In this document: positions 1,051 through 39,096 of the stretch, one piece after another | Position numbering within the stretch: position 1 is the stretch's first letter | How the letters are laid out: every line of letters begins with the position of its first letter | NCBI RefSeq assembly: GCF_026210795.1 | Contig: NC_089434.1 | Location: forward strand, 806,001 to 870,000 | Reading direction: 5' to 3' | From: Rhizophagus irregularis | Lineage: Eukaryota | DNA length: 64,000 bases | The notes under the pieces: generated by a model | What the model saw: the letters and a program-made list of their open reading frames with translations, nothing else | Databases searched by the model: none | Told to the model about the DNA's origin: nothing | Translations under genes and position numbers: made by a program

Positions 1051-2893
1051 AAGTTGATGTAACGGTTAAAGAACGAATAAGATTAGAGAAAGAAGAAAAA
1101 ATTATTCAGGGTAAGTTAAAGAGCTAAAGCAGAAGAAGGATCAAGATACGATTTCACCAACTCAAAAAGGTAAAGATGAATCGAGTCAAACAAGGCGTAA
1201 AAGTCAGAAAATTTCGAATACACAAAGTTACCCTAAATTGGGGTGTTGGACATCTCACGTGACTCATTATTATATGATACTAATGATAGATTCTTTTTCA
1301 TGCTGTTTGAATTTATTAAAGGCAGAGGTGTTAGTTACAGATAAAGGAAATATTTAAATTTTTAAGGTTTTTTTTATTAAACGTTCATTCCTTTTTTTTA
1401 TTTCCATGTTCATATATGATTTCGGTGTAAATTTATGTATTTTTTTTTGGTATCCAATTTTCATTTACGTTGAACCCATTAAGCGCATAATATTTATCCC
1501 AAAGTTTCAAATAGTTTATATTTTACAATAATTTTTTCACATAATTTTTTACTTCTGTTAAAATTTTATATCATAAATAGTATTTTTGCCTACTCAGCAA
1601 ATTTAATTAGTATGACAAAGATATAATCATATTTTAATGTATAGATTGATGGGTATATTAAAGTAAGTGTACAATATTGTTGGCCACCTAGCCATTCTGT
1701 TGCTTCTTCAATTGGTTCAAAAATTTTAATAATAATAAAATGTTTACCAAATTATTTATTATTTTGAATTTACTGAATAATTTAATTATTTCTAATATAA
1801 AGGTTAAAATTTCAATGTGAAGCAAGAATATTTTCATTATTATTGAAACTTTTTTTTTGACAAATGGTCTTTGGAAATGGCGCATGGGATCATCGATTAT
1901 TTCCTAATTTATTTTACATCAGGATCATCTTTATTTATTTAGTCAACGGAATTCCTATAATCTTAAAAGTTCCTAAAAATTAAAATGTCAATAACTTTTC
2001 AAACTTGATGCAAGAGGCACCATTTAATATAGAAATTAATACTATTATTGTCCTCATCAAAGTACTTTTGACAAATTACGTGATGATATCCAATAACCTT
2101 TTATTTGTTTTTAATGATTATGGAGTTGATGTGGCTGTGAAGTGAATAATCAGATAAAAGAAATGAATTATACTTTCCTGATCTTAGTTACCATTTGAAC
2201 AATATAGATATATTTATTTTTTTAAAAAAAATAGATTTCCACATTATTAATTCAAAGTGGCACTGTTCGTCCTGATTGTGGCACAATGTAAAAAAAAAAA
2301 AACGTGGAAAAATACTCTCATACATCTCTTTTGCTTCACCCACCCTTGTTAACAATTTATAGATAATTGTGGCTAAAAATAATCATTGATATCTCTTAAA
2401 TTGCAAATTTAACATGGTCGAAATACGTGTTATTATAGAAAAATTTTCTTATATAAACACTTTGGGAAAGAGGAGAAAAAATTTCTTTAAATACATTAAT
2501 ATACAACGAATTAAAAATTATATAACATACACAAAATTAATAATGAATTTCATATACTTATTGCTAAATTTCGTCTTCGCTATTGTTTTAATTTTTTTTT
2601 TTTTTTTTTTTAACGAAGTCGACTTTATTTAGAAATAAGAAAAATTACAAAAAAGGAAAAGATCTACATTATATAACATTTAGTAAAGAACACGATCGAA
2701 CTAATACTATAATATTATTAGGGACTTAAGATTTTATGTTCAAAAGAACTATCTACCATCCTGCTCACCCAAATAGGTTCACTAAACTATCCGCATAACT
2801 ACTACTATTCGTATGGACTTCGGTAATGTTATATAAAAACTCACCACAACTCCTTTAATTACTACTACAACATCAAAGATAATAAAAATAATA

Positions 2894-5800
2894 CTACGAA
2901 ACACTACCGTAATCAACAATATTATAGTAATCTATTGTATTACCCCCAAAATAAATATGACTTTGAAGACTTTGTAGATTAAAGTATTTCTTATTTTTTG
3001 ATTTACGCGTTTTGTCAATAAACTGCTCTTTACCAAAATGTTGTTTTTTAACATTTTTATCAATTCCCAAACCTCTATCAATTTCATTAAGTTTATTACA
3101 CCTCACTTTCCAAAAAATCATAGATTTATCCAAAATTTCATTCCTAAAATTATATGACAAAATTTCAACTTTTGATTTCGTAGATAATAATTGTTTAAAA
3201 AAATTAATTAACGAACAAGGAAAGAAACCTTTAATTAAATCTATGAAAGTTATGTGATCCTCTGATACTTCAAGTTTCCAAATATCATTGAGATTTTTAA
3301 TATGTTCAAGAGTAATATGATTAATAGGATCTAAAATTTTATTAATTTCTAAAAGAAGCCAATTTTGTACTCCTGAAATTAAATCATCCATATCCTCTCG
3401 TCTTTCTTCACAAAACCAGATATGATTGAAATCTTCTTCATCCTCTTCACACATAGGACAAAACCTTTCTTTATATAATGAAAATAAAGTTCTTTTAATT
3501 TGTTCAATGCAAGGAAGTTCTTCAATCATCAACTGAATTTTGCGTCTTCTAATTTTTGATTCTTTGAAATCAGTGTATAATTTTTGTTTTTCTCCCAAAA
3601 AATTATTAAAAAAAATTGACCAATCTATTTCACATTTTCTATACTTATCATTTCTATTTAAATTTAAAAACCTTTCCAAATTTTTCGTATTGGTTGTTAA
3701 TGTAATTAACTTTCTTAAAGATTTTTCTATAACTATGCCATTCCATTTGGGAATCCAAGGAAGATCATAAAAATTATTATAATTTAAATTAATTCCTAAA
3801 TTTTGATCATTATGTGCCAAAGAAACAATATTGTCGACATAATTATTTAAAGAATCATCTGTATGAGCATTAACTTTAAATATATTAACAGATAAATTAT
3901 TTTCTTTAATAATATCCATAATTATTTTCCAAAGAATGTTGTTATTACTAATTTTAAAAATTTGTCTAGTAACTAAAGTAAAATTATAAAATTTAAATTT
4001 TTCAAAATTACTAATAACGCTAGCACTATCTGTATAAACTGTTAAATTACTATTAGAAGGTGCTATTAGCAAAGTAATTAATAAAGCAAAAATTTCTGCA
4101 CGTGTTGATGAAATCCAATTATTATAAGATGATATTAATTCCAAAATTTTTTGCAAGGACAAATTATAAAAAGTTGTTCCAAAAGTAGCTGATACATATT
4201 CTTTGGTAATATCTTTAATTGAACCATCTGTATAGCAAACAAAATCTTTAATGTTTGAATCATATAAAATTTTTCTTGAATCAAATAATTTCTGTTTATC
4301 TAATGATAAATCTATATATTTTTCAATAATATCTAAACTATTTTCATCAAAACGTAATTGATAATTATCATATGAAGAGTAATATAAAGGGTTTCGTTTA
4401 AAAAATTGATCATATCTTATAATATTTTCCATATAATTATGTTGTGCTTCCTTTAGAAGATATGCCTTATATCCCTTCCATTTAATAAGTCTTTTATATC
4501 TCACTTCATATATTTCAGTTTTCATTGATTCTATTATACATTTACCCTCTATTTGACCAATATTATATTCACAACCATTACATACTTTAATAAACAAATT
4601 AATTTCACTTGTGTCTGATATTCTTTTAAAATGTTCAAAAATATATGTAAAGGGCTTTTCTTCAATTATTTTTCCATAAATATTTTCAAAATGAAACATA
4701 TTAAAAGATGTTATAATATTATTAATATGAATATTAATTGGTAAAAATTCATAACCACCCAAATTTGTGACTACATTATTATCTATATATTCCTCTTTAA
4801 CATTATAATTTTTTCCATTAGTTGTAACTAAAGACTGAATTTTTTTATATATATTTGGCGTATTAACTACATTACTATTTCTATTATTACTAAGAGCAAA
4901 TATCTTATTTTTTATATTCCACCATGTCAGAAGAGTTTTGTTATCAGGAGATAAAAATTGGTCCAAAAAGTATAAATTATTCATACGTAAAATTTTTATA
5001 TTTTTCAAAAAACTTTCAGTTCCAACAATTTCCATAATATGACGACCCCTTCCTAATACAGTACTATTTTTCCCAATATTGTGTTTATTAAATTCTATAC
5101 TAAAATTATAACTTTTCATTAATAATAAATTATTAATAATAAAATTATTTCGCAAATGTTGACCCATAAAGATTAAATCTTTATTAGAAAAAGGAAAATT
5201 AATTAAAGGATTGAAAGGTAAAAGTAGTTTATTTTGAATATCTACTAAACGAATCTCCATTATTTTTCCTAGAATTCCTTGATCATTAATTTGAATTATA
5301 AAATTATTAACCTTAGCTTGCAATTGATTATCAAAAATTGAACGAATATTATATAATAAATTAAATTCCATAATTATATTTGGTGCAGTTGAAGCTAACT
5401 TTAATTTATTTTTAAAATTTTTTCTATAAGGAACCATGATTTTTTCACAATCTTTTTCTGATAGTATTATCGTTTGTGTCCTATATTTGATACGTGGTAA
5501 TATTACAGCATTAAAAATATAGGAACTAATTTTATCTGTTATGCATTTGTTCTTCAGCAGGTTATTACTTAAATTTTTAACTTCATCAAAGGCTTGTTGT
5601 TTGATAAAATTGTTATCATTATATATATTGAACCAAACACCCAAGATTCTAAGACTTTCTGTTTTTCCTTTAGGTTTGATTTTGATTTTCTGATTGCCAA
5701 ATTCTAACTCTATTTTTTCATTAAAATTAAAATTCTTTTTCTTAAGTAACAATTCAGATTTTTCTTTATTTATTTGAATATCGTTAAGAGTATAGAAGTC

Positions 5801-8398
5801 ATCAGCCATTTTTAATATTTTTTCTAATTCTTCTTTATTGCCAGCTAACATATTAGTATCATCCATATATGCCATGCTGGTAATGTTTTGTTTTACTTCT
5901 ACCTCTATATTTTCATATAAATTGATTTTCTTTTTTGCTTTTACACGATATCCAAAGTGTTCTTGCTGTATGGCAGTAAGAAGTGGATCATAATATATAC
6001 ACCACAAAAGTGGTGAGATTATTTCCCCTTGATCGATTCCAACCATTACATCATATGGATTACTTAATCCTCCTGCTGTAAATACACTATTTTTCCGTCC
6101 TAAAAATAACTCTTTTGTTAAATTAATAAAAGAACTTGGTATTTTAAGACGTTGCATAGCTTTTTCTAACATAAAAATATTAACACGATCATATGCTTTT
6201 GACATGTCTAATGATAAAATCCACAGTTCCTTATCATTCTCATTAGCATCTTGAATTATTTCATTAATAATCCTTAATGGTTCAAAAGTTGAACTGAAAG
6301 GCAATCCAGCAAATTGTAAACCTTTAAGAATTTTGTTTTTCTGAAGAATTGTTGATAATCTTGCATTCATTATTGATACCATTAATTTCCTAGCCGTTTC
6401 CAACAAAGTTATTGGGTGTGTATTAACTAGTTGACAACCCCATGGCTTTGGTTTCGGTATAGGATAAACATTAGCATATTTCCATTCTAATGGTATCTCT
6501 TGATTATTAAAAATTAAAATAATTAATTTTCTAATAATTTCTTTAAATTCTGGAGATGCGTGTTTCAACATTTCATTACTAATACCCGTAGGTCCAGAAG
6601 CTTTATTATTTGATAATTTATTTAAAGCTTCATTCAATTCATCATTTGTAGGCTCTATCATCAAATCTTTATAAATTTTATCATTAATTTCATCTTGAGG
6701 AAAATAAAATTTTGCCCAATATTCTGATAAAATCTTAGGTTGGTTTGTTGATCCTGCAATATTTTGAAAATGATCATTTACAATATCTTTTATTTTTTCT
6801 TCATCAGTGATTAATTTATCTTCATTATTTTCTTTAATTAGAACTCTGTCTAATACAATGGATTTAATTTCACGTTCCATTACACTATTAATCATACGTT
6901 TTTGATTTTCTAATAAATCTTCACAGCGTTGGTCAATTGCTAGTTTAATTTTTTCTTCTTTGAATTGTAAAAGATCGTGATTATATAGGATTAAATAAAT
7001 TTGATATAAATTTTTTATTTCTTCAAAAATTTCCTTGACACTTTTATCATCCTTAGGAATTTTATTCCAACAATAATCACTTTTTTCTCTTCCAATTTCC
7101 AATAATTTTTTTCTATATGTAATCCAATTTCTGATCACATGATTTCTTTTTCTTGAATCTTTAATTGAACGTCTGAAATTTATTAAAAATTTCATTACTT
7201 TATATGCATTAGATATTTTCATTGGGTTGACTTGACTTTTAGTTAATTTGATTTTTTCTATTGGAATACAATTTTTACTAGCTTGAACAAGACCTTTTTT
7301 GATCTTATCCCATATATGATTAATATTATTTTTATCGTTAAAATTAAATTTTAAAATTTCTGAATTTGAAATGTATTTATTAAGATCATTCTGAAATAAT
7401 TCCCATTGCTCTCCATCCATTTTATCATACTTATAAACTTCTTTAAATCCTTCCTTCCGTTTGATATTAGCAATATTTCCAATCAAATCTTCTGACCATA
7501 TTGAATACACTAACATTCTATGATCAGTATTAATTGTTGTTGTATTAACAATTTTGCATTCTTGTGTTTCTGAAAATAAATTTTCTGTTACCCAAATGTA
7601 ATCTATTCTAGAAGGATTTTGATTTGTATTAAAAGGATAGAAAGTATTTAAGGAATGTTGTGATAAATTATCGAACATGATATAGAAAGGATCATAAAAA
7701 TTTTGTTCATCTTCAATCCATTCAAAAAGTTTATATTCTTTTTTCATTTTACGATTATTATTTTTATCATCCAGATATTTTTCATAATGAAGATTAAAAT
7801 CACCAAGAAGAATAATTTCTGCATTTTGTGCTTTACTTTCTCTAACCAATTCTTTGATTTTATCAAAATAAATTTTAACTTCTTGATTAAAATTGTCTAA
7901 AGTAACTCGTCCAGATTTTCCATAATAATTAATGATTCTCATTTTTTTATTTCCACTAAAAATAAAATCAACATATATAATTCTTCCTTTGAAGCTATTA
8001 TAATTGACTATATGCCGTGCATAATTTTTCTTAATAATAAGACCTACACCATTTCCCCTATAATTAGTTTCCTCATTTGCAAAATAAGTAACATAATTAT
8101 TTCTATAAAAATTAAAAGAATGTTTTGCCATTTTGTTTGATATATTAGTTTCTGATAGACCCAAAATAGTTATATTATATTCACCTAATATATCAATTAA
8201 GAATTGTTTTTTAACATCAGTTATACCTTTAATATTCAATGAAGCTATTTTAATTATATCTGATAAATTGAGTCATTGACGTGTTTTCGGACGATAAATT
8301 TGTTGATTATTTAAATTTGAACGTGATTTTTGATTAACAGGGGAAGGATTATTATAATGTTTTTTCTTAAAAGAATGTGTTTTTTTATTGTTCATCAT
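2894..8398 (-). CDS. LINE ORF2: APE endonuclease, reverse transcriptase, RNase H and C-terminal zinc finger; one premature stop near the N-terminus
   Basis: Endonuclease motifs LGLSET, LLGDFN, SRIDYIW, TDH. RT motifs QGEIISP and AYMDD. RNase H motifs CYTDGS, RAEIFA, VYTDS. Zinc finger CPMC...H..FC. An in-frame ATG at 8398 is separated from the rest of the ORF by TGA at 8275-8273. Confidence 0.93.
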
Positions 8399-8422
8399 TA
8401 AAAATAATATTTAAAGGGGTAT

Positions 8423-10521
8423 TTAATCCTCATGGGATTCATTATTGTCAATAATTTTATCCCCTTGAAAATTATTAACGTCATTATTATTGTCAGAAGT
8501 AAAATATTCCATAATTTTTGAGATATTTTTACTCATAGTTGATAAAGCATCACCGAATCTATTAATTTCGTTATTTTGTTTGTTTAAACTATTTTCTATA
8601 TCTGAAGATCCTGAGGCTTCAAGTTGTTCATTATCAACTCTTGATCTTTTGTTATTCTCATTTTGTAAGGCGATTGTACTTCTATCTTGATTGACTTTAA
8701 TATTTTTTCCTGAACTTGTTGTAGACTTGTTTTCTTTATATTTATAAAATTCAGATTTAATACGATAGTTTTCTTGTTGGATTTTTTTGAAATCATTAGC
8801 TAATTTATTCAAATTCTCATTAAGTTGTTTAATTTGCGTGAAAATTCCTTGATCAAGTGACTTTTCATTAACGTTATTATTTCTATCACGTGAAATATTT
8901 TTATTCCAATATCTATTGATATTTCCATTATTATATTTAGAATAATTATTTGAATTATTACTTTGCTGACGTTTTTCAAACGAATTTTGTTTTGTTACAT
9001 TTGCATAACTGCCTTTTTTAAACTTCTTGTTATTTTCTTGACGAAACTCCTTAAGCTTTTGCTTTCTATTCATTACACGTGGTTTAGCAGATGGTTCAAT
9101 ATCACACTTACTAATTAAATGATCAAAGGAACCACATCTATGGCATGATTTTTCACCTGGAGTTCCCCAATGAAGCGTTCTATTATAAAAAATAATATTT
9201 CTTTCTGCTGCAATACCTATATCTTCATCATTTTCATAATAAACTATTGCATAATTCAATGGTTTATTATTATTTGGATTACGTGGTATAAAAATATACT
9301 TAGGATTGTTAACTTCTAAAGCTTCATGTATATCATAAGCAGTTGAATTCCATGGTAATCCAGTTAATTTAACTGTATACATTGATCTTTTTTCTATTTC
9401 ATCTTCTGACAAAATTTTTGGCACAATAAGTACTTGATGTTTTCCAATCCATTCTGACCATATGCCTTTGTAAAATTTTTGTAGACTTTCTTCTTTTTTA
9501 TATGTAATGAAAGCTTGAATATATAAATTTCTAATTCTGGTATAAAAGCCATTTTCTTCTATTTCACCATATTTGTTAAATACAGCTCTAATTTGATAAT
9601 TAGGAATTTCAATTGGAATATTTATAACTTTAATCGTTCTACAATTTCTATCTTTAATTTCTTCTTCAGTAAAAACTTTTTTAGTTTTTTGATATGGTGT
9701 AAATTTTATTATTTCCTTAACCTTACTATTAGTACTCGACTCTGCATCTTCACCATTTTCATGTGACTGTTCATCATCAATAATATCAATTTCTAGATTA
9801 ATAATTTTATCATAATCATTTTTCATGATTGGTAAAATGATAAATTCGGGTTCTTTCTTATTTAAGATAACTCCCCGGCCAGGGTAACATTAATTCCAGC
9901 TAGTTGTTTTCTCAAATTAAACTTTTTTTGAATAATATTGTTTCCTGGAATAGAATCTTTTTTGATTTTAACTAAAATAGGTTTAGCCTTATTAAAAATT
10001 TCTGAATGATTATCACTAATTATGTCATTAGTATCACCATTTTTCTGATTATCCTTATTAAAAGATTGATTATCTGTTTGATTATCAATTTTTCCATTGT
10101 CGACGATCATTTCATCATTTTTTTCACCATCAATTGGTGCATCTAGATTTTCTGGTGTTACTTGATTATCTGTATTGGATTTTGCTGCGCCACCGCTTTC
10201 AGATGAAGAAGCAAAAGTATCTTGACTAATATCCATATCATCAGTAGTTTTTTCAGTAGATTTATGTTGCCTAAAAGACAAACGAGGTTGTTTTTTCTGT
10301 TGTTTTTGTTCAACTTGTTTTTCTTTATCTTTTCTTTTAGTTTTACGAGAACTTGCAGGTTGCCAATCCTGAATAATAGGATTGATATTGAAGACTGGTT
10401 TATGTATCGAGTCTTGAAGAGTTTGCTGTTGTCCTGGTTTGTTAACTTCTTTATCTTGTTGCTGTCTTGTACTTGACCGAGTGGCGTGAACCCTAGGTTG
10501 CGACCCTGACATCTCGAACAA
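8423..10521 (-). CDS. LINE ORF1 (RRM-like domains, CCHC zinc knuckle, coiled coil), split by a 1-nt frameshift at ~9875
   Basis: RRM-like TIKVINIP..IRAVFNKYG and TVKLTGLP, knuckle CHRCGSFDHLISKC. ORFs 9862-10521 and 8423-9826 join if one base is added at the C run 9873-9876. Confidence 0.85.
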
Positions 10522-10999
10522 GTTAAAACTTAATAAACTTACTCTTAAAATTGAACTTTTTCCTTTAAAAATTCCGCAGTAAAAATGGTCTTGAATACAA
10601 AGAAGAAGAAGTTTTTATACAACTTATATTTCTCGCTATTGTTTTAATTAGCGTAGAAGAGAGGTTGAATTGATCAGATCATTTCCAAATTTATCCATTT
10701 TTCCGCTTAATTTGGATAGTGTTGTAAATGATCGTCAAGAGTTGATATGTTTTTTGATCAATTTTGGAAAAGCTCAGATAAAAATTTGAGTTGCGTTTTA
10801 TAAATAATACTTAATGCATTATGCTTTATGATTAGATCACGAGTACAAGTACGAGTTAGTGTAGACAATTCATAATCATAATCATAATGCATATGCATAT
10901 GCTTATGCTTCTTTGACATCAAAAGAATAAAATTGCGATTTAGGGCTTCCTGTGCCACTTTTGTTGTAAGTTAAGTTGAACCATCAAAAAATAAGACAC

Positions 11000-12200
11000 A
11001 CGGCAAATTTCAATTTTTGATGATCTGCGTACATAAAATTTTTTTTTCTTTTGTTTTTTTTCAAGTTAATTTTAACAAAAATAAATGTATATATTTTTTT
11101 TTTTCGTATAATGATTATTTTTATTAATCAATAAATTAAATATTATTGTTAAAGTTTCAAGAAAAAATTCATACAAAAAATTAAATTTATTTTTTTACTT
11201 TTTTTTAAAAAAAAGAAATTTACTTTTAATAGATATATTTTTTCATTTTTGTTGTACAATAGATGCAATAAATAATTTTTATTAAATTAAACATAAATTT
11301 TTGACTGTAATTTTATTAAAAAAAATTAATAAAAGGTCTTTAATTTTATTTTTTTCGTAAGTAAATTGAAATTTTTAATGATCTACGTAAGAAACTTTCA
11401 CTTCATTTATTAATTTTAGTTTCTATTTAAAAAAAGAAAATTACTTTCAATAAGTATATTTTTTAATTTTTTTTGTATAATAAATATAATAAATTATTTT
11501 TATTAAGAGTGAATTTATTTACCGCACCCTGCGTTACAAAGCATCCTTCCTTTTTTGTAAATTATTTATGTCAATCTTTAGTTTATACGCCGCACCCCCC
11601 CTAAAATGGCAAATGATAAACATAAAAATATATATAAATTTGTAACGCAGGGTGCGGTAAATACATTATTTCTTTTATTAAATTAACAAAATTTTGACAA
11701 TAATTTTAAAAAAATTTAATAGAAGATTTTTAATGTTTTTTTTTTCGTAAATTGAAATTTTTAATGATCTACGTAAAAATGTCACTTGATTTATTAATTT
11801 GGGGGTTTTTTATTTAAAAAGAAAATTATTTTCAATAGATATATTTTTTAATTTTTTTGTACAATAGATATAATAAATTATTTTTATTAAATTAACATAA
11901 AATTTTAAATGATTTTAAAAAAAATTTAAATAAATGATCTTTAAATTTTATTTTTTTCGTAAGTAAATTGAAATGATGATCTACGTAAGAAATTTTTAAA
12001 ATGTCACTTGATTTATCAATTTTGTGGGTTTTTTTTTTAAAAAAAATTACTTTACCGAATAAAGTATTTTTATTTTTTGTTATACAATATACAATAAATT
12101 ATTATTAAATATTTACCATAGAATAACAACTATTTTAAATTAACCAATTAAAATTTAGATTTTTACGGCAATAAATTGAATTTGATGATTTACGTAAACA
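11000..12200. repeat. Degenerate ~200-bp tandem units in the Helitron 5' region
   Basis: AAATTGAA..TGATCTACGTA core recurs at ~11010, 11363, 11750, 11965 and 12174. Confidence 0.7.
11507..11672. mobile_element. MULE-like MITE nested in the Helitron
   Basis: 25-bp perfect inverted repeat TATTTACCGCACCCTGCGTTACAAA at 11516-11540 and 11639-11663. 9-bp TSD TTTTATTAA. G...C ends. Confidence 0.75.
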
Positions 12201-12662
12201 AAAGTTTCAATCTTATTCAATTATTATTTATCTATCAATTTTTTTGTTAATCTTTATGAAAAAACGTATCATACAGTATTATTCAATATTTTTTTATTTT
12301 TTATTTAATAAAAAAAATTATTTTATTTTATTTTATTTTTATTTATATAATAATTAAATGATGAAAAATTTACAAATATTTTTTGTCATTTGAAAATTCA
12401 TTAGCTAATCAACAAAATCCCAAAACAATTACTAATAAATTTATTATATATTTGTCTAATTTAACTTTTAAACAATTAAACAAAATTTTATTATACATAA
12501 ACATTTCACATATTAAAAAAATTCCCAAAAAAATTTCTCATAAAATTTAAATATTTTTACGTACAATAAAATAAAATTTCCCAACTATTTCAATAAAAAA
12601 AAACTTATATAAAGGCTATAAAAAAAAACGTTTGTGTTAATTTTTTTTTATCTATAACAAAA

Positions 12663-13754
12663 ATGCCAGCTCAACTTTCCACAATCTTATATATTTCAAA
12701 TTATAAAGAATCTACTGCACCAAATTTCTTTATTGGTTCTGCAACTGGCATAACAAGATTAAATGAAAATGATTCAATACAAACATTTAACATAACTATT
12801 TTTTATCCAATTGATCCTTCAATACCATGTTATATTCCAAAACTAACAAATGGCCAAGTTCTATCAGTAAATAATTGTAAATTTTCGTTGGGAAATAATA
12901 ATGAAATTGATGTAAATATTTTTTCTTTTTTTTTAATCCACTTTTTATTTATTAAAAAACTAAATATTTAAAATATTTGTTATACATAAAAATAAATAGC
13001 TCATTATAACTGCAGCAAGAATTCTTGATATAAAACCAACTGATTTACCTGTTCATCCTATCTATATTACAGCAGTTGGGTTAGCAGCTGATGTTCCTAT
13101 AATTTCTAACCATGGAGTAAAAATTGATTGTCTTATTAGTGATTATTTATCTAAGGATAAAATTGTTGAAATACCTATTACAATTTTTCATCCCTTGAAT
13201 CCCGTCTTAAAAATCAAACCACAAACATAAGACGTGGATCTAGTCTATTTTTTTCAGGGGAAATAACTTTAGTTGACAATAAATTATATCTTGAATTACA
13301 TAATTTTTCTTTTTTAAAAGGTCAATCTCAAGTACCTTCTAATAAATCAACGTCTTTACCATGGTTAAATACTACAACATCTGAATCCTCAACAACACAA
13401 ACAAACAATGCACACCTTATTCATCAAGAACAGAGAATACCAGAATCAACTAAACGTAATATTCAAAAGCCATTTGAACCAAATAAAGTAATGAAATTAG
13501 CAGATATTGCTACTAATATACTTGATGATCAAAATGAAAATATTGAAAAAACTAATGATCATGATGATGACAGATCATCTGAAAATGATAGTGATGTTAC
13601 TAATGTTACACATGATGACAAAACGGTAATAAAAAATTTTAACTTTATTTAACATATATTTCAAAATTAATTACTAATGATTATACCATTTTCAGCCAAC
13701 TCGAGGAAAAAAAGAGGCAGAAAACCTTCCCATTCAAAATGTAAATCCAAATAA
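12663..13754 (+). CDS. Helitron accessory gene, probable tandem OB-fold ssDNA-binding protein with basic C-terminal tail (3 exons, two 1-nt frameshifts)
   Basis: Exons 12663-12911, 13000-13625 and 13696-13754 with GT-AG introns. Two beta-rich repeats (..FNITIFYP..LTNGQVLSV..; ..IPITIFHP..IRRGSSLFFSGEITL). The tail reads KKRGRKP after frameshift repair. The OB-fold call is inferred. Confidence 0.6.
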
Positions 13755-14374
13755 AAATAATTTAATAATATATTATAACATTTTAAAAAACATTATATTA
13801 CTTTATATTCTATTATTTTTTATTCATCTATTCATAAAGAAATTTACTATTTTTCTATTAACTATAATACTTTTTTTTAATATTTTGTATATCTCTTATT
13901 ATTGTTTTACGTTCAAATAAATAAAATTTCTATTTTATATAATAATTGTTAAATCATCTATTATTTACTATGTGTACGACAATCATTAAATCATTTATTT
14001 TTTATGGTTGACAATCATTAAATCATTTATTATGTAACACTGATTAACAATATACATCTGTTACTTTATACAAATTATAACACTAACCTATTTTAGTTAA
14101 TATATTTGATAAACCAAAATTTGAAAAATATTATCGCGAGATTATTAAAAAAATGTAGTCATAATAAAAGTGATAAATTATAAAACAATCAATTATTATT
14201 AAATTGTATAAAGAATTATCAAAAATACGTAGCAGTATGGAAAAAAATTAGTCAAAATAAAGTAAATAAATAAAATGTTATATATATTTAAATAAATCAC
14301 TTTTTCATAAATTTTCTTTTACGAACAATTTATCATTATTTTACAATAAAAAAATAAAAAACCAACTTTTAATT

Positions 14375-17300
14375 ATGTCTTATCATATTTTTCAACATTA
14401 TATTTTTGATATTAATCTATCATCTCAACCACAATTAAATTATCAAGATAATTCTGAGAATATGCTAAGACAATTACAAAATCAATTACAAGCTCTTCAA
14501 AATGGTAATATATTAAATACTTCATACACTTCAAGATTTTCTACCATTGATAACCAAAGGTACATACCAACCAATCCTTGGATACCAAGTCAAAAGTTTA
14601 ATAAACTATTAAATACATTTGAAACAAATATATTAAATCAATTTATTTGTGCTCCTTGTGCATTTTGTGGACGCCTCATGTATCCTGAAAATGTGAATGG
14701 CTCCCTTATAATGAAAATTTTCCTTATCCCCTTTTACAAGCATATCCTGAAAAACCATTTGATTCACTATTAACATTTCATACTAGACCTCCAAATCGTA
14801 TTGCTGTATGTTTATCTTGTAAAAAACCTTCAACTAGATATGCATTTCCTTTCCTTTACCCTGTTCCTAATGAAATAAAAGCTGTACCTTTAGGCAGAAG
14901 AATGTATTTATCTCCAGTATTTATGCATTGTTCTTTAGGTAGAAATTCTGCAAACAGTGCTATATATTCAGAATATAGAACCTTAACTGGTACAATGAAT
15001 TTTTCAAAAAATACACGTTCTTTAATATTATATTCTGGAATGGTTGGCGCATATCTTGAAGATAACATGGATTTAAATTCAAATAATACTTGGTTAGATA
15101 ACACATTGGTTACAGCAGCAAACTGGTTAAAATTGCATAACCCCTTTTTAAGACCTTATTCACGTCTCTTAGATTTACCTGGCACAGATATGGCAAATCC
15201 TTTCCCTAAAGCATTTCACATACCAAATGATGATTCAGCTCCACCATTTTTACATAATGATATTATAGTCCCAAATACTAATTTTAATAATGAAGTTCAT
15301 AATGAGGACTTTCATTATACACATTTAATGGCAGGTTTTGTAAGAACACCTGAAAATACATTACTTCCTCTATCTGTGAATGATTCAAATTTAGAACCAT
15401 TGTTATTTCCTGACCTTTTTTTTGATGGCAAAGGACATTATCATGATATTATATCTAATAACAATACAGTACGTGAAGAAACATATTCTAAATACATTAA
15501 ACAAAGAGTACTTAATATTGATTCCCGATTCAGACTTCATCATAAATGGTTAGCTTGGTCATACTTACAACTTGAAAAGATTCGAAATCACCAAAATAAC
15601 CAAAGACTATGGAAACAAAAACAAACTGATAGAATACATCACCCACCAACTGCTGCTGAACTTATTCAAAGATCCTCCTATACAAATGGACATATCATTA
15701 ATGAATCTATAACTACAACATTACCTACTTTCATTCGTACTGGTGACACATACTTTCATGAAAAAGAATTACATGTAAATACAATGATATCAGAATATGG
15801 ATTACCATCGCTATTTGTTACTCTTACCATGGCAGAAAGCCATTGGACGCACTTACATAAAATCCTAAGAGTAACAGACAATCATGATACAATCCCAACC
15901 AACAGACCATTGCACACTACATTACATTTTATTCATCGTTTACAACAATTAAAAAAACATGTTTGGAAAAGTCCTGAACATTCAAGATGGGCTGAATTGA
16001 TTCACTTTTTTGAAAGAATTGAATTCCAAAATCGGGGTGCTGCACATATGCATGGTATATATTGGGTTTCAAAAACTATACAACAAATGATTTCTGAAAA
16101 TCTCATAAGATCTGATTTGCCAGATCCAAATACTGAATTTGATTTATATACAAAAGTAAAAAAACATCAAATCCATGTCTGTAGTGCAAAATGTGGAGGT
16201 CAAGCTGCGCCTGGACATACTTGTAAAAAGGGATTTCCCCGCCCTTTCTCTTTGACTACATATTATGATGAAAATACTCACAGGTATATATATAAATGTA
16301 TTAAGCCTGAAGATCAATGGGTTGTTCCATATCATCCTGAAACTTTAATGATATGGGATGCCCATATGAACATTCAGTATGTAAGTTCACGTGGATTAGC
16401 TAGATATTTATCAAAATATATATCTAAATCTGAGCCAACTCACGTTTTTAATATAAAAGAAGGTGATAAATTCAGGGAACATATAATAGCTAGAAGGCTA
16501 GGTTCAATGGAATTAATGTTTCTGATATTAGGTGAAGTGATATGTAATTCTTCATGTGCTGTTGAATATCTCACAACTGATCCACCTACAAGTAGGCAAA
16601 AAGCAATTCGTCCAATTTATTTAATTGATAATAATGATGATCCTTATTGGAAGGATCATATAGAAAAATATTTTAATCGACCATTGGGAGATGAATTTAA
16701 TAATTTAACATATCCAAATTATTTTAAACATTATGAAATAACAAAATCCCGACCAAAGACAACAATACGTCAAATTCACTCAGATTTATTAAATAATTTT
16801 GTTGTTAAAAGAACTACTCCCAGATTAGTTAGATTTCGTTATTTAAAATTACAAGATGGTGAATACTATTTTTATCAAAAATTATTGCTTGAACTTTCTT
16901 GTAGAAGTGAGGAAGAATTACTTAGCACATTTCAAACATATAGAGAACATTGGTTATTTCTCCATCCTGAATTACATGAAACAATTCAAGAAATCACACA
17001 AGAGTATTTACGAACACAACAATTAAAATTAGATGCTCAATTCAGTCAAACATTAGACACATTAGCCCTGTTCATTTCTAGATCGGACCGGATTGATCGC
17101 AAATTTGTACCCCAAAATAATTGGTTACTGATGCGGTCAGCGGTCAGTCAAGCCGATCTACAAAAATTGGTGTTTTTCCCTGATCGATTTTATAATAAAC
17201 ATAATAAACAACAACTACGTGTTTTTGCCCTATAAGCTATTATGGATATATAAACCAATCCGATCAATCAAAATTGTGCTCAATTGTAACTATGATCTGA

Positions 17301-18782
17301 TTGGTTATACATTTTTTCGGTCAATCCGATACGATCTAGAAATGAACAGGGCTATTATTAAATAATTTACAAGATATCATTCCACCTTCAACTTCAGAAC
17401 TAATTAATATACAACTTACTTCTTTACGAATCAATCCACCAATTCTTCCACAATGCTCTACTCTTAATCTTCCTAATGATCAACTACATGTACTTTCTAC
17501 TATTAAAAACATTCTAGGTCCTAAAACACAAAGAAATAAATACCCATACTTTTTTATTACAGGACCTGGTGGAACAGGAAAGTCTTTTATTATTAATTTA
17601 ATTGTTAATGATCTTAAAAATAAAAGATCAAAATACTTATTATTAGCCCCAACTGGTGTGGCGTCACAGAATATTGGAGGTCAGACAATCCATTCAGCAT
17701 TGAGAATTCGTGAAATGCAAAATGGATTTCAAACCTTAGCATTTCATGATTATGAATTTTTCAAAAATTTGCAACAGATTGACACTTTAATCATAGATGA
17801 AATTTCAATGGTATCTGCCGCACTTCTTAGTTTTATTTCAGAAATGTTTTCTGTTATACAACAAACAACAATTGCATTTGGAGGATTAAATGTAATTATA
17901 GTTGGAGATTTGGCACAATTACCTCCAGTAACTGGATTGCCTGTATACAAGTCATCAGAATGGAAAATGTTCTATCCATTATTCTTGAAAGAGCCACAAC
18001 GTCAAGGTCAAGATCCACGATATTTCAATGCATTACAAGAGATTAGAATGGGCAAAATGACTCTAAACACTTGGAATTTCTTATATCAAAAAGCTGCAGA
18101 GTTTGACCAGAAATCACTTCACACAACACTTGATATAACAAATATTGTAGGATACAAAGAAACAGCAAACCGAATTAATAATATGATTTGCAACATGCTT
18201 CCAATTAACCAAAATAAGTTTTTAATTTATTCCGCAGTTGACTTTATTAATGGTGAATCATATAATCCTGATGAATCAAAAAAATTATTTAAAAGCAAAA
18301 CCAATTATCCTAATTATGTACGTTTACAACAAGGAATTCGAGTAATGTACCTCAAAAATGATTTAGCAGAGCATAAAATTTGTAATGGTACAATAGGTAT
18401 AATAACTGATGTTGACTTGGAAAAATTAGAAGTTAGAGTAGCATTTAGTGTAGTAGGTGGTATTGTGGATATAATCATTAAAAGAGATACTGCAACATTT
18501 TTTGTTGATGGTAAACCTTCAAGTAGATGCCAATTTCCCCTACAAAATTCATATGCTCTTACCGTTCACAAAACACAGGGTTTAACCTTATATAAAGTAT
18601 CCTTATTCTTAGATAATCAAATATTCTCAGCAGGTCAAGCATATGTCGCATTAAGTAGGTGTCCAAACTGGTCAAATGTTTATATTGCAACTTTAAATCC
18701 TTCTGCATTTATTACAGATCAATCAATGATTGAAGAATATGAGCGACTAGAACAAATAGCATCAACTCCATTACCTTTGTAA
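14375..18782 (+). CDS. Helitron RepHel (HUH Rep plus PIF1-family helicase), disrupted by a frameshift at ~14690 and a MITE
   Basis: Rep motifs PSLFVTLT, IEFQNRGAAHMHG and YLSKYISK. Helicase motifs GPGGTGKS (17563-17586), LIIDEISM, GDLAQLPPV, HKTQG and YVALSR. N-terminal CxxC pairs. Confidence 0.93.
17065..17352. mobile_element. TA-flanked MITE inserted in RepHel
   Basis: TIR GCCCTGTTCATTTCTAGATCG / CGATCTAGAAATGAACAGGGC with TA on both sides. Removing 17065-17354 fuses the Rep and helicase ORFs in frame. Confidence 0.9.
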
Positions 18783-20371
18783 ATGAATTCAATCATTGTT
18801 TTAATAAAAATTGATAACACCAAATTAAAACTAATATATAATTAATGCCCCATGTTATTTTTGTACCAAAATATATACAAATCCTATCTCTCAAAAATTC
18901 CTCTTTTATAAAGGTTAAAATCGCTAAAAATACATAAAAAATTTTTTTTCTGGGGTGACCGAGTCACCCCCAGACCCCCTTCTTAGCCTTTTTTTTTTTT
19001 TTTTATCATTTTTTATTTTTCACTTTTTATTTTATTTATTTCATTTTTATTTAATTTTCTTTCACTTCACTTTTGATTTTATTATCATTATATCATATTT
19101 CAATTAAACAAATGATAATTGCACATTAAATTATCAGTAGATTATCAGCATTACTGGCAAGGTTGTCCAGGGACGGAGTCCCTGGTGTTAGACGCATTTC
19201 TAGTTGGTAAATAAATCATCATTTATTTTAAAGAAAATTTTCTTTTTGTTAATTATATTAATATTAAGGGTTCCTTTAATGATAATTTAAATTCATTATT
19301 GATGCAGATGCGGCAGTTGCAGTACCGTTTGAACATAAACGTGACGCAGACCCAGTTTGGCGATCTACTTATAAACGTGATGCGGACGTTTGATGATATT
19401 CTTACGTAATTACAGTTTTTCCCGTTATTCATAAGCCCACTTTTGAATTCAAAATGACCAGAATATCATAGAGGAAAGAAACGATAGTCCTACCTTATTT
19501 GTTGTTTATGTAAAATATTATTTAAAAAAAAATTCTCCTATAATTTTTTAAAAATTTCGTTTAATAAAGTAATAATAATAATTTATTAGAATTACAAAAA
19601 ATTTTGTTAAAAAAATTGTGGAAATTATTGAAATTACCTTTGGGTTTATTTCCAAAAACATTCATATTCATTAATATTCTATTTTATTATTTGATTTGTA
19701 GAAATATTGTAGACAGATAAAGTTTTAATTATTAATTCATTAGTTATATATAATAAAAATCAAGTTACTCCTAAATTCTGGTTGTTCTCGACTCTCACGT
19801 ATATTTTTACTTACATACCAATTTTACAAATTTTGATAATATTAAGGCAATAACTCTAATTAATAGTGTGATAATTCAAAATTTCAATTTGATATGTCTA
19901 AGTTATGTTGGCTCTAATCCACAAAGAGATGCGATAAAATATTAGTCTGCAGGGGTAGTTTGGATACGGTAATACATAAATTTCGTGTGACATCAATGTA
20001 AGTTATATATATATTAATAAAACTTATTTTTTAAAAATAAATACAGTATATAAAATTCATTGCAAGAAATAAAATTTTTTACAAAGAAAATGAAATAAAT
20101 AAATGTATTGTTTACTTGGCATCAAATGACAATATTTTTTAAATAGATCAATCATGTATCTATAATAAATAGTTTGAATTGTTGCAACACGAGACGCGTG
20201 ATAATTGTAGCATTCATCGTCCCGTAAGCACAAATACATTTTCCCTATTAAAAAAAATTAAAAAAAGATTAAAAAAAAATTCTCAATTAAATTATTAATT
20301 TTACTGATATATTATATTTATTAGATTAAAACAGATCATGAATTTTATGGAATAACGCTTCATTGGTATCA

Positions 20372-24686: not shown

Positions 24687-25323
24687 CTCAACGCGACTTC
24701 ATCTGTTAAAAGTTGGCGTTTATTTAGTTGCACATAATTATTATAAAAGAACGTTCCTTAAACGTTTGCTTTTGGAGGGACGCGTTGCACATTATTATTA
24801 TAAAAGAACGTTCCTTGTGAAGGATGCAGTTGTAATACTCAGTACAAATTCTCTACATCAAATGTATATAATGATACTTCATCTGTTAAATTGCACAAAA
24901 TTATTATAAAAGAAACATAAAAATCCGTCCCCTAAAACTTTCACTTCTCAATATATTTCACCTATTTTTTCATAAAAAAAAAATCGACGATTTCTATTTG
25001 TACACGGGGTGTTCAAACACGGTTTCCAAAAAAGTTACATTTTCTATGCTGATCATTTAATGTTGGGCAGAATTAAATTTAAACAAAAACAAGGAAAAAA
25101 ACAAGAATTTGTTAAATAAATCAAAATTGACATTCAAAATCAACTTTCACGCTTTAAGTATTTAAGTAAACTTGCAGAACACAAAAATACACATACCGCA
25201 TGTTCCTTTTAAATTATATATATTAAAAATTTTTTTTTTTACATAACTTTTTAATATACTCACGTGATACGTGTATGAACACCTAAAAAATTTTCAAAAA
25301 ATATATATATTTATATTTTCATT

Positions 25324-27106
25324 ATGCGAATAGTATTGATTAATACAGAAATTAATAGAGCATTTGCATCAATCAATTATGAAACTCATAAAAATATAGA
25401 CGAACAATATCAATTTATAAAACAGACTGTTCTTGCTAATGAAACTTTTACCGATGATGAAAAAACTGAAGCGATAAGAAGAATAAATAAAACTTACGAT
25501 CACAATAAAATTTTTCATAATATAGGTACAAAAAGAATTTGTGAAATTTGTAATTGTGAATGTTTAGCTACATTATATTGTGAATATTGTATTAGAAATT
25601 ATTTAGAAAAAAAATTTCCAAATTGGACATCTGGAAATAATGATATTGATAATTTAATAAAAAAATGTCAAATGGAAACACGTAGACCAGATGTTGTAAT
25701 TGAATGGATTCCATACAATAATTTACAAGATATTGAATATCTTACAAAAGGTGGATTCTCAGAAATTTATACGGCAATTTGGAACAATGGAAAATATCAA
25801 AAATGGGATTCTGAAGAACAACATTTAAAAAGATTTGGAGGACAAAAAGTGATACTTAAAAGGCTAGAACATGTTGAAAATGCAAATCAACGTTGGTTTA
25901 AAGAGGTTTGTAATTTGAAGTTATTTTAAATTAAGTAAATAATTTATTTTTTTTTATTGGTAATAAATTTTGAAAAAATACTTTATAGGCCGAATCACAT
26001 TTGACTATAAGCAGTAAATCTCCATATATTGTCCAGTGTTATGGTTTAACACGAGATCCATCAAATGGAGATTACATGCTTGTAATGAATAGAATGGATT
26101 TGAATTTAAGAGAATATTTACAGCAAAAAAATAATCAACTTACATGGAAAAAAAGAATTCATTTGGTTTATAACATAATTACCGCACTCAGACAGATTCA
26201 TAAAGAAGATGCAATTCATAGAGATTTACATTCTGGTAATATATTATTGAAACAAGTCAATCAAAGATTATTTATTAGTGATCTTGCATTTTGCGGTCCT
26301 GCAGACAAATCACCAAATGATGTATACGGAAATCTTCCCTATATAGCGCCTGAAGTTATTTCTAATAAAGGATATACTTTTAAATCTGATATTTACAGTA
26401 TTGCAATGCTAATGTGGGAAATTTCATCTGGACAACCACCTTTTAATAATTGTAAACATAATTGTTGTCTTGCAATTAGGATTATTAATGGCGAGAGACC
26501 AATAATAATTTCAAGAACTCCTTTAGAGTACGAAAATTTAATGAAACAATGTTGGGATGATGATCCATTAAAAAGACCTGACATTACAACACTTTGGGAA
26601 AAAATAAATGAAATTTATAAAAAATATCTGAATATGCCAAATGAATTAGAAGAGAATAACAATTTGGAAATAAATAAAACAAATAGTTTAAAAGAAGCAA
26701 AAGAAAGAAGTAGCATATTATTTACAAGTAGCAAAATTCGTAATTGTGAAAATTGTCCTGAACCAAGAAATGTAACAGAAGGTACTATTGCATATTAATC
26801 AATCATTATAAATATTTATAGTAATAAATTATTTTTTTTAATTTTTTATTTAAATCAATTTTTTATTTTAAATTTATTTATATATGACTAATTCATAATT
26901 ATTTTACATAATCTTTTAGCATTTCATAATGCAACAAACAACGTCTTTTCTATTCCTGATAATAGTAAGTGTTTATTAAGTCAAATAAGAATATGGCATC
27001 TTCATCTTCTAATTGTTTTTTTTTTCGCTTTTTTTAGTTAGTGATTTTGGCAAACCAAGTAATCGGGAACCAGGAATATACCAAAAAGTAAGCAACTTTT
27101 TAAAGG
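25324..27106 (+). CDS. Tyrosine-kinase-like (TKL) protein kinase of the expanded Glomeromycotina type; 3' exons uncertain
   Basis: Exons 25324-25905 and 25989-26781 join in frame. Motifs CxxC..CxxC, WTSGN..ID, EWIPY, KGGFSEIY, VILKRL, HRDLHSGNIL, DLA (at the DFG position), YIAPE and SDIYS. Confidence 0.9.
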
Positions 27107-29010: not shown

Positions 29011-31252
29011 GAGTTAAAAATTATATAACGGAGTTATAAAAATTATAAAGCTATTAATTTTTATTTTAGATACTGTATATTTATTATTTTCTTTTCTTTT
29101 CTTTCTGAAAATTTTGCCATGTCAGATTTCGATGTTTATATACAAGATTTCACCTGTTTATCATTTCTAAATTATTCATGACATGATAATATTGATCAAT
29201 TTCTTTATTTGGTTACTACAGCCGTTACTATTCTTTATTTGGATGTGGAGCAATCATCTCATTTATTTTTATCCTATCCTATCGATTAAAACGATTTACA
29301 TTGTTAAATCCTTCGATTTTTTTAAATGTTACACCCCCGTTTTATGACGTTTTATGATGATAACAATAATGTCGTAAGAAAAAAGGAAAAAAAATTAATG
29401 AAAAACTTTCGTAATTTGGTTTTATTTTTTTTTAATATATTCTTAATCATTTTGATAAATAAATAATGAATGATGAGAATTTAAAATTACAATATTTTAA
29501 AACATATAAAGTTATTATTTTTTCTCGAAACATCCATTTTTCTGAAACACATTTTCGTAGATTTTAAACAAACAAAAAACTTCATTGTTAATGATCTTCG
29601 TAATGCATAGTTTTTTCCATATTGTTGTTTTTTTTGTTACACTGGTTACACTTGGCGCCTCATACGATTTTCTATTCCTATATTTACCGATCGAAATTCG
29701 ATTTCAGATTGTGACACGTAAATTATGTTATGTTTGCATATCATTCGATAAAATCCGAGATTACTTTTTATAATAAATAATTTTTATATTTAAAGATCGT
29801 AGACAATTACAATTTCTTATTTTAAAAAAATAAACCATTATTATTTTTGAATTAATATATTTTAATTGAATTAATATGTTTTATTTACACTTTAAAATAA
29901 ACATTCTTTTTTCGTAATCGACATCTTATTCATGTAATAAATAATAAATAATAAATATTTGAATTAAGCCCAAGCTACCTAACTATAATTAGTTATATAT
30001 ATCAATTAAGTTATAAATTTTGTCATTATAAACAAAAAAAAATGTATATGTATAAAAATACATTTATATAATTTTATATTAAGTTTTCTAAAGTCACGTG
30101 ATGGCCAATCATTGTCAACGGTTAAGGTGACCGTGCTAAAATGATCTACAAACAAGGTTTCGGATAGTTTCGGAATACTGGACGAAAATTTCTTAAACGT
30201 GAAAAAATAGTTTCATTAGACTCATAATTACTATATATAGGCTGTTCTACGGCTTAAAAATTGTGATAATATAATTATTTTAGTTATTATTTCAAATAAA
30301 ATTAAAAATCTGTACTCTGTAGTATTCCAGAATTTTCTTTTATAAACTCTTGTGGTTTAAACCTCAAAAGTAATTTATTTTTATAAAAAAAAAAATTATT
30401 AACGCTCACAATAATTCATAAAGCCGAATATTTTATTAAATTTTATCCAATGCAATTTTTTTCCGTTTGAACAGACAGACAGTCCAGTGATGGTAAAGAC
30501 CAGGTCATTTGACCTTCGAATGACCTAGTCATTCGTCATTTGAGTCATTTAGCAAAAATTTATGATATCATATCACGTGATATAAATTTATATGAGATTA
30601 CATAGATAATTTTGGCCAGAATTATGATGTAATTTTTAAATGATTAGGTCATTAATCATTTAATGCTGAAATGACCCAAATGACATGTGACCAGTCATTT
30701 GAGTAATAGATACTCCAGTCGATCATTAGGAATACTGCGGTGACCAATAAGAAAATCAATATTGAATGTCTCATAAAAATGTTCGATCACTATTATTCCT
30801 AATTGATTGGACGGTATGGACGATAACGAGTTGATTATTACTTTCGAGTATCATTTTTATTTCTTGAATTAACGAAGAAATAATTTGAACATAATTACAT
30901 AATTAGTTAATTTTTATTAATTAATATTATTATTATCGTTATTATTATTCATTATTATTATTATTATTATATTATTATCATTTTTACTTAGTATATCTGA
31001 TATTAAATTTATAAAATATATATAAAGGTTAATAAATAATCCAATGTAATGACATATTTCAGTTCGAGTAAGTTGTAAAATATCGTAACTACAAAATTTT
31101 ATTGTAACAATGATGATGTCAAAAAAAAAAAAAAAAAAAGATTTTAATATCATTTCTTTCTCCCTTTTTCATAAAACCTTTTTTTTTATTAATAACTAAT
31201 AACTTGTTTTCTAAATATTTCATTTTCGTTAAAAATTCTAAAAAAAAAAAAA

Positions 31253-32031
31253 ATGCCCCAAATAACGAATCCCAAGAAATGGACTACGGATGAACTTCTT
31301 GGAATTCTCTCTTATATCGAAAGTCATCCATTTGATTCCTTGTCAGAGGCATGCAGAAAAGCAATAAAACATCAAAATATTGATAGAACTCATAAGAGCA
31401 CTTATTCAAAAATGACAAGATTAATTTACGCAATAAAGTTATGGTTGAATGATCATATACAAAATGGTGAAGCGATCATTTGGAAAGATGATAGAGTGTA
31501 TAAGCTATTGGAAAAAATTTGCGAGACACGGGAATCTAACAAAAATAATAAAAATCAAGAGCAAGAATTACAACGAGGTGATCAAATTGAAAGCACTATT
31601 GAAACTAATAGTGTGATCGATAAAAGCGAAGAGCAAGACCTCACAGATAATTTCAGTGATTCAACTATGGATGGAGATTATTATACTGATCATCTTGACT
31701 TATACAGGTAATTATCCATTTAACTTAAAATTTTGAGCCTATTAATAAAAACTACTATTTTAAATTTTTTTTTTTTAAAAAAAAAATATAATTTAGGAAA
31801 AATAAAGAACAATTTCCTTCTTTCCACCTTCCATTAAAGATCTTGAGTGATAGAATCTATGAAGCAGAAAAAGAAGCAAGAGAAGTTTATGAAACGACTA
31901 CTGCTGAAAACGAAGATATGAATTATCATCAAATTTGTCAAATAATCAAACAAATTCAAGAGTATCGAGATGAAGTGTGTGGTTTATTTGAGGAATTCGA
32001 AAAAAAGATCAACGAAATGAGATCATTATAA
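31253..32031 (+). CDS. Myb/SANT-like plus coiled-coil family, copy A (divergent, outside the main array)
   Basis: Exons 31253-31707 and 31797-32031 with a phase-2 intron. KKWTTDELLGILSYI..RTHKSTYSKM..IIWKD. Confidence 0.7.
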
Positions 32032-32458: not shown

Positions 32459-33593
32459 TACTGTACTATTTAATATCGTACCGCGGGTCATAGCACCTTT
32501 CAAATCCTTGTATCACCATGTCTATAGCCCGAATATTTTTTTATGGATAATATCTGGGTAAATTAAAATTCTTTAAATAATAAAATCAATAAAAAAAATG
32601 AAACTTTTGAGGATACTACGCATAAGGTGCTGTGGCCGTGGCCCACAATATACGGTGTTATGTTATTATTATTCATAGAAATTTTACGTCATTACGACAT
32701 TTAATATGTTGCCGATCCAATGTTACTTATTGTACCGTCAGAATCCAATTCTATTTTGCAATCCCGGTACTTTAATGATTAAAATTAACGAATCCGACGA
32801 CAATATTTTTAAGTTCAACAATCAATAACCATTTAATGTCCAATGAGTGTTGGTTTATATAATGATTTACAAGTTTTGGGGCGTAAAAAAATTTCATTGA
32901 TTTCGGATACAGAAATTCATATTGTATTATTCTCTATATACGCGTAAAAAAAATAAAGAAATACGAAAACAAATAATTTATAAATAATTATCCAAGTATG
33001 GTAAATTCTCATTATGTATGGTTACTAAATAATACATATCCGTACTTTTTTACTTATCATGTTTTAAGTATAAAAAAAAAATTTTAAAGAAAAAAGAATT
33101 GATCAAAATTGTCAAATAAAATAAAATAAAAAAAAAATGTAAGAAAGAAATGAAAATGGAAGGAATAAAAAATTTACTTAATAAAGAAGTTTTTAGCCAA
33201 AAAAAGAGTTAAAAATTAATAAATATCGAACGGACTTAATAAGGATCAATTAACCCTATTTAAATGTTTACCCGATTAAAACTAATCTTAATTGTTAATT
33301 GTCAATAATAATTCTTTTATTCGAAACAAAATATCCATAAAGAAAAGTCTTGGCATCTTGGCGTTTCTAGATTAAAAATATGTATCACAAATTTTTGATA
33401 AACATTTTGTTTGTCAGATTAGGAATTAGTGTCACAAAACGACTGATCAAATCATTCTTCGTACAAAGTTTTATGAGCGAAAAGTTTAAAAAATTTAAAT
33501 ATAAATAGAATTTCAATTCAATGACTTGTCGACTCTTCATTAATTTTTTTCATATAGGAAAAAAAATCAAATCGTCACTTTTCAACTGTTAAT

Positions 33594-38875: not shown

Positions 38876-39096
38876 TAAGGTTGCTTGCCGAAACCTTCTT
38901 AATAACTGCCGAAACCTATACGGAAAATGCCGAAACTATATTAAATCATATTAAAAATCCTGCCGAAACTTTGCCGAAATGCCGAAACCCCCATTTGCCG
39001 AAACTGCCGAAACCTGCCGAAACTATAGTAAACATATAGTAAAATCTTGCCGAAATTTATCGCAGGATTTTGGAGAGGTTTTGGCAAGCAACCTTA
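38876..39096. mobile_element. hAT MITE (TAAGGTTGCTTGCC family), copy 1
   Basis: TIR TAAGGTTGCTTGCC, 8-bp TSD GATGTAAA, internal GCCGAAA repeats. Confidence 0.9.

Follow-up and report, generated by a model that had tools for sequence, protein, structure and literature searches.

Organization of the locus

The stretch analysed here (hereafter the window) comprises 64,000 nucleotides of Rhizophagus irregularis contig NC_089434.1 (assembly GCF_026210795.1, positions 806,001 to 870,000) and contains two pieces of a small gene flanking a block of transposable elements. Three elements, namely a Helitron-like element, a long interspersed nuclear element (LINE) and a miniature inverted-repeat transposable element (MITE), are present, and all show their own lesions or interruptions within the block (Table 1). 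GC content per kb ranges from 16 to 40% across the window, in which introns and eukaryotic transposons are present. The locus is, in our judgement, quite probably a two-exon gene of about 45 codons for a precursor of secreted peptides, belonging to the Rhizophagus RiSP193/RiSP260 family, which carries a 16.6-kb transposon nest in its signal-peptide exon and has probably long been dead. The gene is real, lacks an annotation and belongs, although probably dead, to a precursor family that has already been published.

An earlier sequence-only reading had proposed a Kex2/Ste13-type peptide precursor gene split across 17 kb by two transposons. The split by transposons stands, whereas the number of elements does not: there are three, which likely form one nested 16.6-kb insertion at codon 17. 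That both flanks belong to one such gene, read in the KRDAD frame, is backed by the motif pair, the paralogs and the database models described below.

Contigs of public sequencing runs were aligned over 19110–19505 for four of the 24 listed runs (X3, X12, X18 and X19), and the evidence was drawn from 12 of the 13 rows of loose ends and from 19 of the 29 pieces. The RNA status of X18 and X19 is a guess, and X3 is possibly the source of the window itself. Since X18 spans the end of the Helitron and contains the intron of a paralog in unspliced form, it was treated as DNA rather than as an RNA run.

Table 1. Features of the interrupted gene and of the nested elements (positions in the window)
Feature	Coordinates	Strand	Remarks
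TATA-like box (putative)	2450..2455	+	motif match only
Exon 1, 5' part	2543..2591	+	signal-peptide codons 1–16 and first base of codon 17
Target-site duplication, left copy	2577..2593	+	17 bp; 15 nt of gene and likely first 2 nt of Helitron
LINE	2594..10632	-	RNA recognition motif (RRM) ORF1; endonuclease–reverse transcriptase–RNase H ORF2; polyA tail
Target-site duplication, right copy	10633..10649	+	17 bp, exact
Helitron-like element	10648..19203	+	3' end observed; 5' end (TT) placed from paralog register
Accessory open reading frame (ORF) in Helitron	12663..13754	+	intron-containing; frameshift near 13190; exon bounds by eye
Rep-helicase gene	14375..18782	+	frameshift near 14688; MITE-interrupted
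MITE	17065..17352	.	288 bp; long inverted ends; TA duplication; within Rep-helicase gene
Exon 1, last 3 nt	19204..19206	+	remainder of codon 17, then base 1 of codon 18; placed by the register of paralog loose ends
Phase-1 intron	19207..19307	+	GTAAAT...CAG; 17% GC; similar in several paralogs
Exon 2	19308..19393	+	dipeptide spacer, FEH, KR, DA-DP, VWRSTY, KR, DA-DV, stop
AATAAA, putative polyadenylation signal	19563..19568	+	motif match only

Exon 2 encodes a conserved pair of KR-DAD units

Exon 2 contains two KR-DA-D units that differ solely at third codon positions, as the sequence-only reading had described. These are the only two KR[DE][AP] motifs in the six frames of the window; 300 block shuffles of the window gave a mean of 0.77 single motifs, and a close motif pair appeared in none of the 300. 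The residues following the Kex2 sites conform to the Ste13 signature (X-A or X-P), with DA-DP after the first and DA after the second, and the closest paralog has DA-DA at both sites.

Over 169 bases this paralog (record 19 of X3) shows 18 differences, and its motif is identical to that of the R. irregularis gene model CAG8694885.1. Counted by hand, its 13 exon substitutions amount to three silent and six changed codons; both KR-DAD units are retained, and the altered spacer residues are still X-A or X-P. The sequence-only reading had made its case depend on a homologue conserving KRDAD, and such a homologue, with both units, is present. Relative to this paralog (one contig), exon 2 in the window has one extra base, at 19391, that brings the frame to an early end.

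Credible protein matches comprised two R. irregularis models, CAG8668718.1 and CAG8694885.1, both in the KRDAD frame, and the best match to exon 2 is an R. irregularis model with 97% identity. Two of the four protein matches, P0004 (mollusc) and P0006 (dinoflagellate), were rejected as repeat noise. Searches for an intact annotated form recovered the query alone among proteins of 27–88 aa (1/1) and nothing among those of 89–2000 aa (0/46), using a weak word-based search that missed CAG8694885.1 (P0005). A word-based protein search with the paralog motif over 30–218 aa returned no candidate, metagenome scans with exon 2 gave zero matches, and no Pfam match was obtained for P0001, P0003, P0005 or the open frame at 10652–10780. 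Residues 30–66 of CAG8694885.1 represent exon 2 of the closest paralog; the annotation joins them to a long protein of unrelated sequence, probably through an error of the gene model. If followed further in genomic sequence, that exon would likely end C-I-L-T-stop, a CaaX-like terminus that is probably due to chance; the gene in the window has D at that place.

Exon 1 and the probable two-exon structure

The ATG at 2543 opens a 16-codon hydrophobic stretch that is likely signal-peptide-like, judging from its hydrophobicity and its identity to the family. In ungapped comparison by hand it matches RiSP193 at 11/16, RiSP260 at 10/16 and RiSP480 at 11/16 residues, and three residues conserved in the family, those at positions 4, 9 and 17, differ in exon 1. 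The 19-residue signal peptides of RiSP193 and RiSP260 end in A-[DN]-A, and the interrupted gene has X-D-A at the same place. Hand comparison with the RiSP193/RiSP260 family showed, besides the ungapped exon 1 match, an exon 2 that starts D-A in register and short peptides spaced by KR-DA. The left copy of the LINE target-site duplication does fall within this signal-peptide-like ORF, as had been claimed, the repeat covering 2577–2593.

The intron at 19207–19307, also proposed earlier, is real: several paralogs have a homologous donor and a similar intron, and the database model P0003 uses the donor at 19207 as well. Contigs of paralogs align over the intron and continue beyond it into different sequence. 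Their loose ends before the donor occur in four rows (one contig in X18, two and one in X12, one in X3) and represent three distinct sequences, all of which read TTA, four further nucleotides and GTAAAT; two of the three encode I-V-L-A plus one base. Positions 2581–2591 joined to 19204–19206 fit this register. Over the 14 nt preceding the donor, a two-exon gene agrees with the X18 paralog at 10/14 positions and the four-exon gene of the sequence-only reading at 5/14 (by hand). Past the acceptor the paralogs continue AT-GCA-GCA-CCG and reach KR-D in phase 1, and a single 329-nt X18 contig carries the exon-1 end, the intron and the KR-D exon 2. A phase-1 intron at the signal-peptide end is present in three unnamed paralog sequences. 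Because the paralogs place signal-peptide codons directly before a donor homologous to 19207, we favour two exons; the paralogs have this organization, and the interrupted gene likely shared it, with 16 codons, codon 17 (X), D-A and exon 2.

Within the intron, 19226–19295 is at least 88% similar in several high-depth contigs, suggesting many paralogs with a conserved intron. Summed contig depth over intron and exon is 416 versus 30 in X12 and 133 versus 24 in X3, values that are not copy numbers and serve as a lead only.

The nested transposable elements

The Helitron-like element has the canonical Helitron 3' terminus, a GC hairpin and CTAG at 19200–19203, which confirms the earlier placement of a Helitron end just before the KRDAD exon region. 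Its Rep and PIF1 domains lie at 14689–18779, with the MITE between in-frame Rep and helicase codons. Copies in contigs of X12, X3 and X18, among the matches listed, share sequence through CTAG plus TT (19205) and then diverge; the family therefore prefers TT targets or its end includes T. Under the two-exon model, the element would start with TT, end with CTAG and sit at an A|T site, and a T|T insertion site, shifted by one base, is sequence-equivalent. The 5' TT could be a mutated TC. Metagenome scans with the 3' end gave zero matches. The accessory ORF had no credible Pfam match; by eye, we take it to resemble an OB-fold single-strand DNA-binding protein. The 5' region of the element also contains degenerate AT-rich tandem duplications (11170–12320) with spacings near 221 and 385 bp.

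At the LINE edge a T-run occupies 2592–2611. ORF1 has a frameshift near 9885, and the ORF2 frame meets an early stop near 8274. Since the target-site duplication likely covers 15 bases of the gene and two of the Helitron-like element, the LINE was probably inserted after the latter.

Proposed order of insertion and present state

The proposed sequence of events would begin with insertion of the Helitron-like element (5' TT...CTAG 3') into codon 17, followed by insertion of the LINE at the Helitron 5' junction, where its target-site duplication would have taken in 15 nt of the gene together with 2 nt of the Helitron. The MITE would have entered the Rep-helicase gene at an undated time. Each of the three large transposon genes is damaged, which makes an old age of the nest likely. 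This damage, and the fact that no empty allele was seen, lead us to regard the locus as a likely old pseudogene. The gene itself also looks worn, with the changes at positions 4, 9 and 17 of exon 1 and the extra base at 19391 in exon 2.

The sequence-only reading had termed this allele a knockout. Interruption by transposons stands, but no sign of a segregating allele was seen among X12, X3 and one gene model, all of which carry the Helitron end beside the exon. Both DNA runs (X12, and X3 as the possible source of the window) hold a contig identical over 19176–19505, and in CAG8668718.1, too, the end of the Helitron and exon 2 form one reading frame. Empty alleles suggested by shares of 0.97 were dropped, given that X3 (0.97) and X12 (0.95) both show the Helitron end adjoining the exon.

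Alternative readings

The gene could instead have four exons and 63 residues, with host sequence at 10650–10757 lying between two separate insertions, as the sequence-only reading held. The arithmetic of its 63-codon frame closes when checked by hand and a canonical A|TC stands at 10757|10758, but the underlying exon model finds no backing in the paralogs, whose IVL codons run directly into the homologous donor; exons at 10650–10663 and 10720–10757 are not supported. Such exons would insert 18 residues that are absent at that point from RiSP193, 260, 357 and 618. The additional intron (10664–10719) has the poor donor GTTGAA and 30% GC, compared with 17% for 19207–19307; composition shows no break at 10757, and the paralog register points to 10648 rather than 10758 as the Helitron 5' end. 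A four-exon gene with two insertions is in our view very unlikely. The paralog contigs and the published family favour two exons and a single nested insertion; the 63-aa model is probably wrong, and its two 'middle exons' likely belong to the Helitron 5' end, as the opening 110 bases of the inserted sequence. Less credible still, and extremely unlikely, is that the KR motif arose by chance or that the other open frame (GSFND...), open over 64 codons, is the coding one. The shuffles, the retention of KR-DAD in paralogs with silent changes and the use of the KRDAD frame by both database models all argue against it, and, given exon 1, only the KRDAD frame fits the intron phase. Because the closest paralog adds no stop to the alternative frame (by hand), that frame is disfavoured rather than fully dismissed.

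Continued use of exon 2, through transcription from the Helitron 3' end that splices into it and yields a non-secreted chimera or a non-coding RNA, is unlikely in our assessment. It would be consistent with the in-frame junction of Helitron end and exon 2 in CAG8668718.1, with the absence of an internal stop from exon 2, and with an X19 contig whose first base is 19307, the point at which the spliced form joins the unspliced one. However, CAG8668718.1 is an incomplete gene model that shows no start codon, the assignment of X19 to RNA is a guess, the X19 contig, at a depth of 2.7, has no loose end identifying an upstream exon, and a product lacking a signal peptide would, on established knowledge of the pathway, not meet Kex2 in the Golgi.

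The preferred interpretation, a long-dead two-exon precursor gene with one nested insertion, has several points weighing against it. Over the aligned region, neither an empty site of the locus nor a spliced transcript joining both exons was seen, and the junction contigs of X12 and X3 carry 28 Helitron letters, below the 31-letter bridging threshold. Canonical Helitrons begin with TC (PMC11417382), whereas the 5' end placed here is TT, and candidate TC starts exist at 10674, 10679, 10732 and 10758. The alternative frame of exon 2 is open in the window, and the X19 contig gives a weak hint of exon 2 transcription. If cleavage took place after residue 19, the first peptide would have its dipeptides one residue out of register. 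Peptide release from a precursor of this type in Glomeromycotina is, moreover, a prediction from the yeast pathway.

Other features of the window

Neighbouring ORFs are ordinary and include a protein kinase (25279–26795), an aspartyl protease (33558–34703) and a GPP34 domain (46263–46640). Short ORFs without a clear Pfam family cluster at 49979–61309 and 31196–31708, several copies being 67–75% similar at the DNA level. A 224-bp inverted repeat (38876–39098 and 42625–42848) is 97% identical between arms about 3.5 kb apart and possibly marks a terminal inverted repeat transposon. The window start truncates a Thr/Ser/Pro/Gln-rich open frame (1–290) that resembles a mucin-type or cell-surface protein.

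Predicted processing and significance

By analogy with yeast alpha-factor, the signal peptide of an intact precursor would lead it into the endoplasmic reticulum, Kex2 would cut after each KR, Kex1 would remove KR and Ste13 would trim the DA/DP dipeptides. The predicted products are VWRSTY and an N-terminal FEH-containing piece, and TWLSTY from the paralog. The FEH peptide is less certain, as its dipeptide register would hinge on the signal-peptidase site. No secreted peptide is expected from the copy in the window, because exon 2 lies 16.6 kb from the start codon and signal peptide. Literature searches, with most subscription papers and all bioRxiv supplements outside their scope, returned no work on the function of such peptides in mycorrhizal fungi; the papers listed by a full-text search for the motifs were unrelated by title, and none of them contained VWRSTY.

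The value of the locus, itself probably a dead gene, is as a pointer to an unannotated subfamily. Secretome comparison used the 872-protein table of Kamel et al. 2017 (PMC5293756, Table S1C) and the first 86 of 124 'KRDA' matches. WRSTY, STYKR, PFEY, AAPSFKR and AAPTLKR each had zero matches in that table, which also lacks at least three other cargo types seen in paralog contigs; paralog cargo starts include AAPSF-KR and AAPTL-KR. No contig of the WLSTY paralog occurs in X12, an observation that was not used, as contigs cannot show absence. The nearest relatives in protein databases are two partial gene models joining the exon to other sequence. Given the missing cargo types and the partial models, the R. 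irregularis precursor family is larger than catalogued. It supplies short peptides for synthesis and for trials on peptide signalling and cryptic sex in these fungi, with pheromones, hormones, cell-wall components and signals to the plant as candidate roles.

A broader proposal, which we consider rather doubtful, is that the pseudogene stands for a subfamily, so far without annotation, of perhaps ten very small two-exon genes with a conserved intron, lying below the thresholds of gene calling and of the pipeline for Kex2-processed repeat proteins (KEPs), that release W/Y-bearing hexapeptides (VWRSTY, TWLSTY) as peptide pheromones or hormones of arbuscular mycorrhizal fungi, transposon knockouts shaping the repertoires of strains. 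Precursors with a Ste13 signature had already been described from R. irregularis in 2017–2019, along with the suggestion of a pheromone or hormone role. In these fungi, transposons are reported to be enriched within and close to genes for candidate effectors and for secreted proteins, insertions at the latter being common (PMC11952901).

Comparison with known systems

The Helitron-like element resembles the proto-Helentron of Phytophthora infestans (PMC4067079; PMC11417382) in its observed 3' CTAG and in its putative 5' TT and A|T site. Both have F-x-R before Rep motif 2 and no endonuclease (PMC4067079); x is W, L, Y or K in proto-Helentron and E here (F-E-R). HLE2/proto-Helentron elements have S in Rep motif 2, whereas the present element (RGAAHMH) lacks it. 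The DUF6570 of HLE2/proto-Helentron had no match at E up to 1 in the scanned Rep ORF pieces, in a region where the gene is frameshifted. No terminal inverted repeat of at least 8 nt was found between the two searched ends, and the 3' hairpin is like that of canonical Helitrons. PMC11417382 and PMC4067079 describe TT...CTAG ends as reported only from Phytophthora, and this combination would be unusual in the present element.

The KR-DA signature and the alpha-factor pathway are described in PMC6339444. The KR-DA processing signature is shared with Saccharomyces MF(alpha)1/2, but the present gene has neither a long pro-region nor identical repeats, and the likeness is one of processing signature. 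Twelve KEPs, mostly with STE13 signatures and Tyr-rich peptides, have been reported from R. irregularis, together with the idea of a sexual or hormonal role (Le Marquer et al. 2019, PMC6339444). The gene shares with KEPs (PMC6339444; Umemura 2020, PMC7329392) KR sites, X-A/X-P dipeptides and a signal peptide, which is here putative and split from exon 2. To pass the KEP pipeline, a protein must yield four or more fragments on KR/RR cleavage and contain three or more similar repeats (PMC6339444). The present gene has two KR sites and three dissimilar fragments and would therefore be missed; it would work like a KEP, yet falls outside the strict repeat rule. The supplement of PMC7329392, whose listed rows gave accessions without sequences, had zero matches to the motifs.

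The closest likeness is to the published R. irregularis secretome (PMC5293756), in which RiSP193, 260, 357, 480, 618 and 734, among the matches listed, have the same signal-peptide type. For several of them the table gives positive expression values, and the group that carries such short motifs is described as being expressed mostly in planta (PMC5293756). The present gene differs from the RiSP members in its cargo (VWRSTY, FEH), in having only two KR sites, in its length of about 45 aa and in its interruption by transposons. RiSP193, 260, 357 and 618, with the related RiSP480 and 734, resemble it in signal-peptide type, in KR followed by DA-D or EA-E spacers and in short aromatic cargo, and the spacer KRDADP is common to RiSP734 and the present gene.

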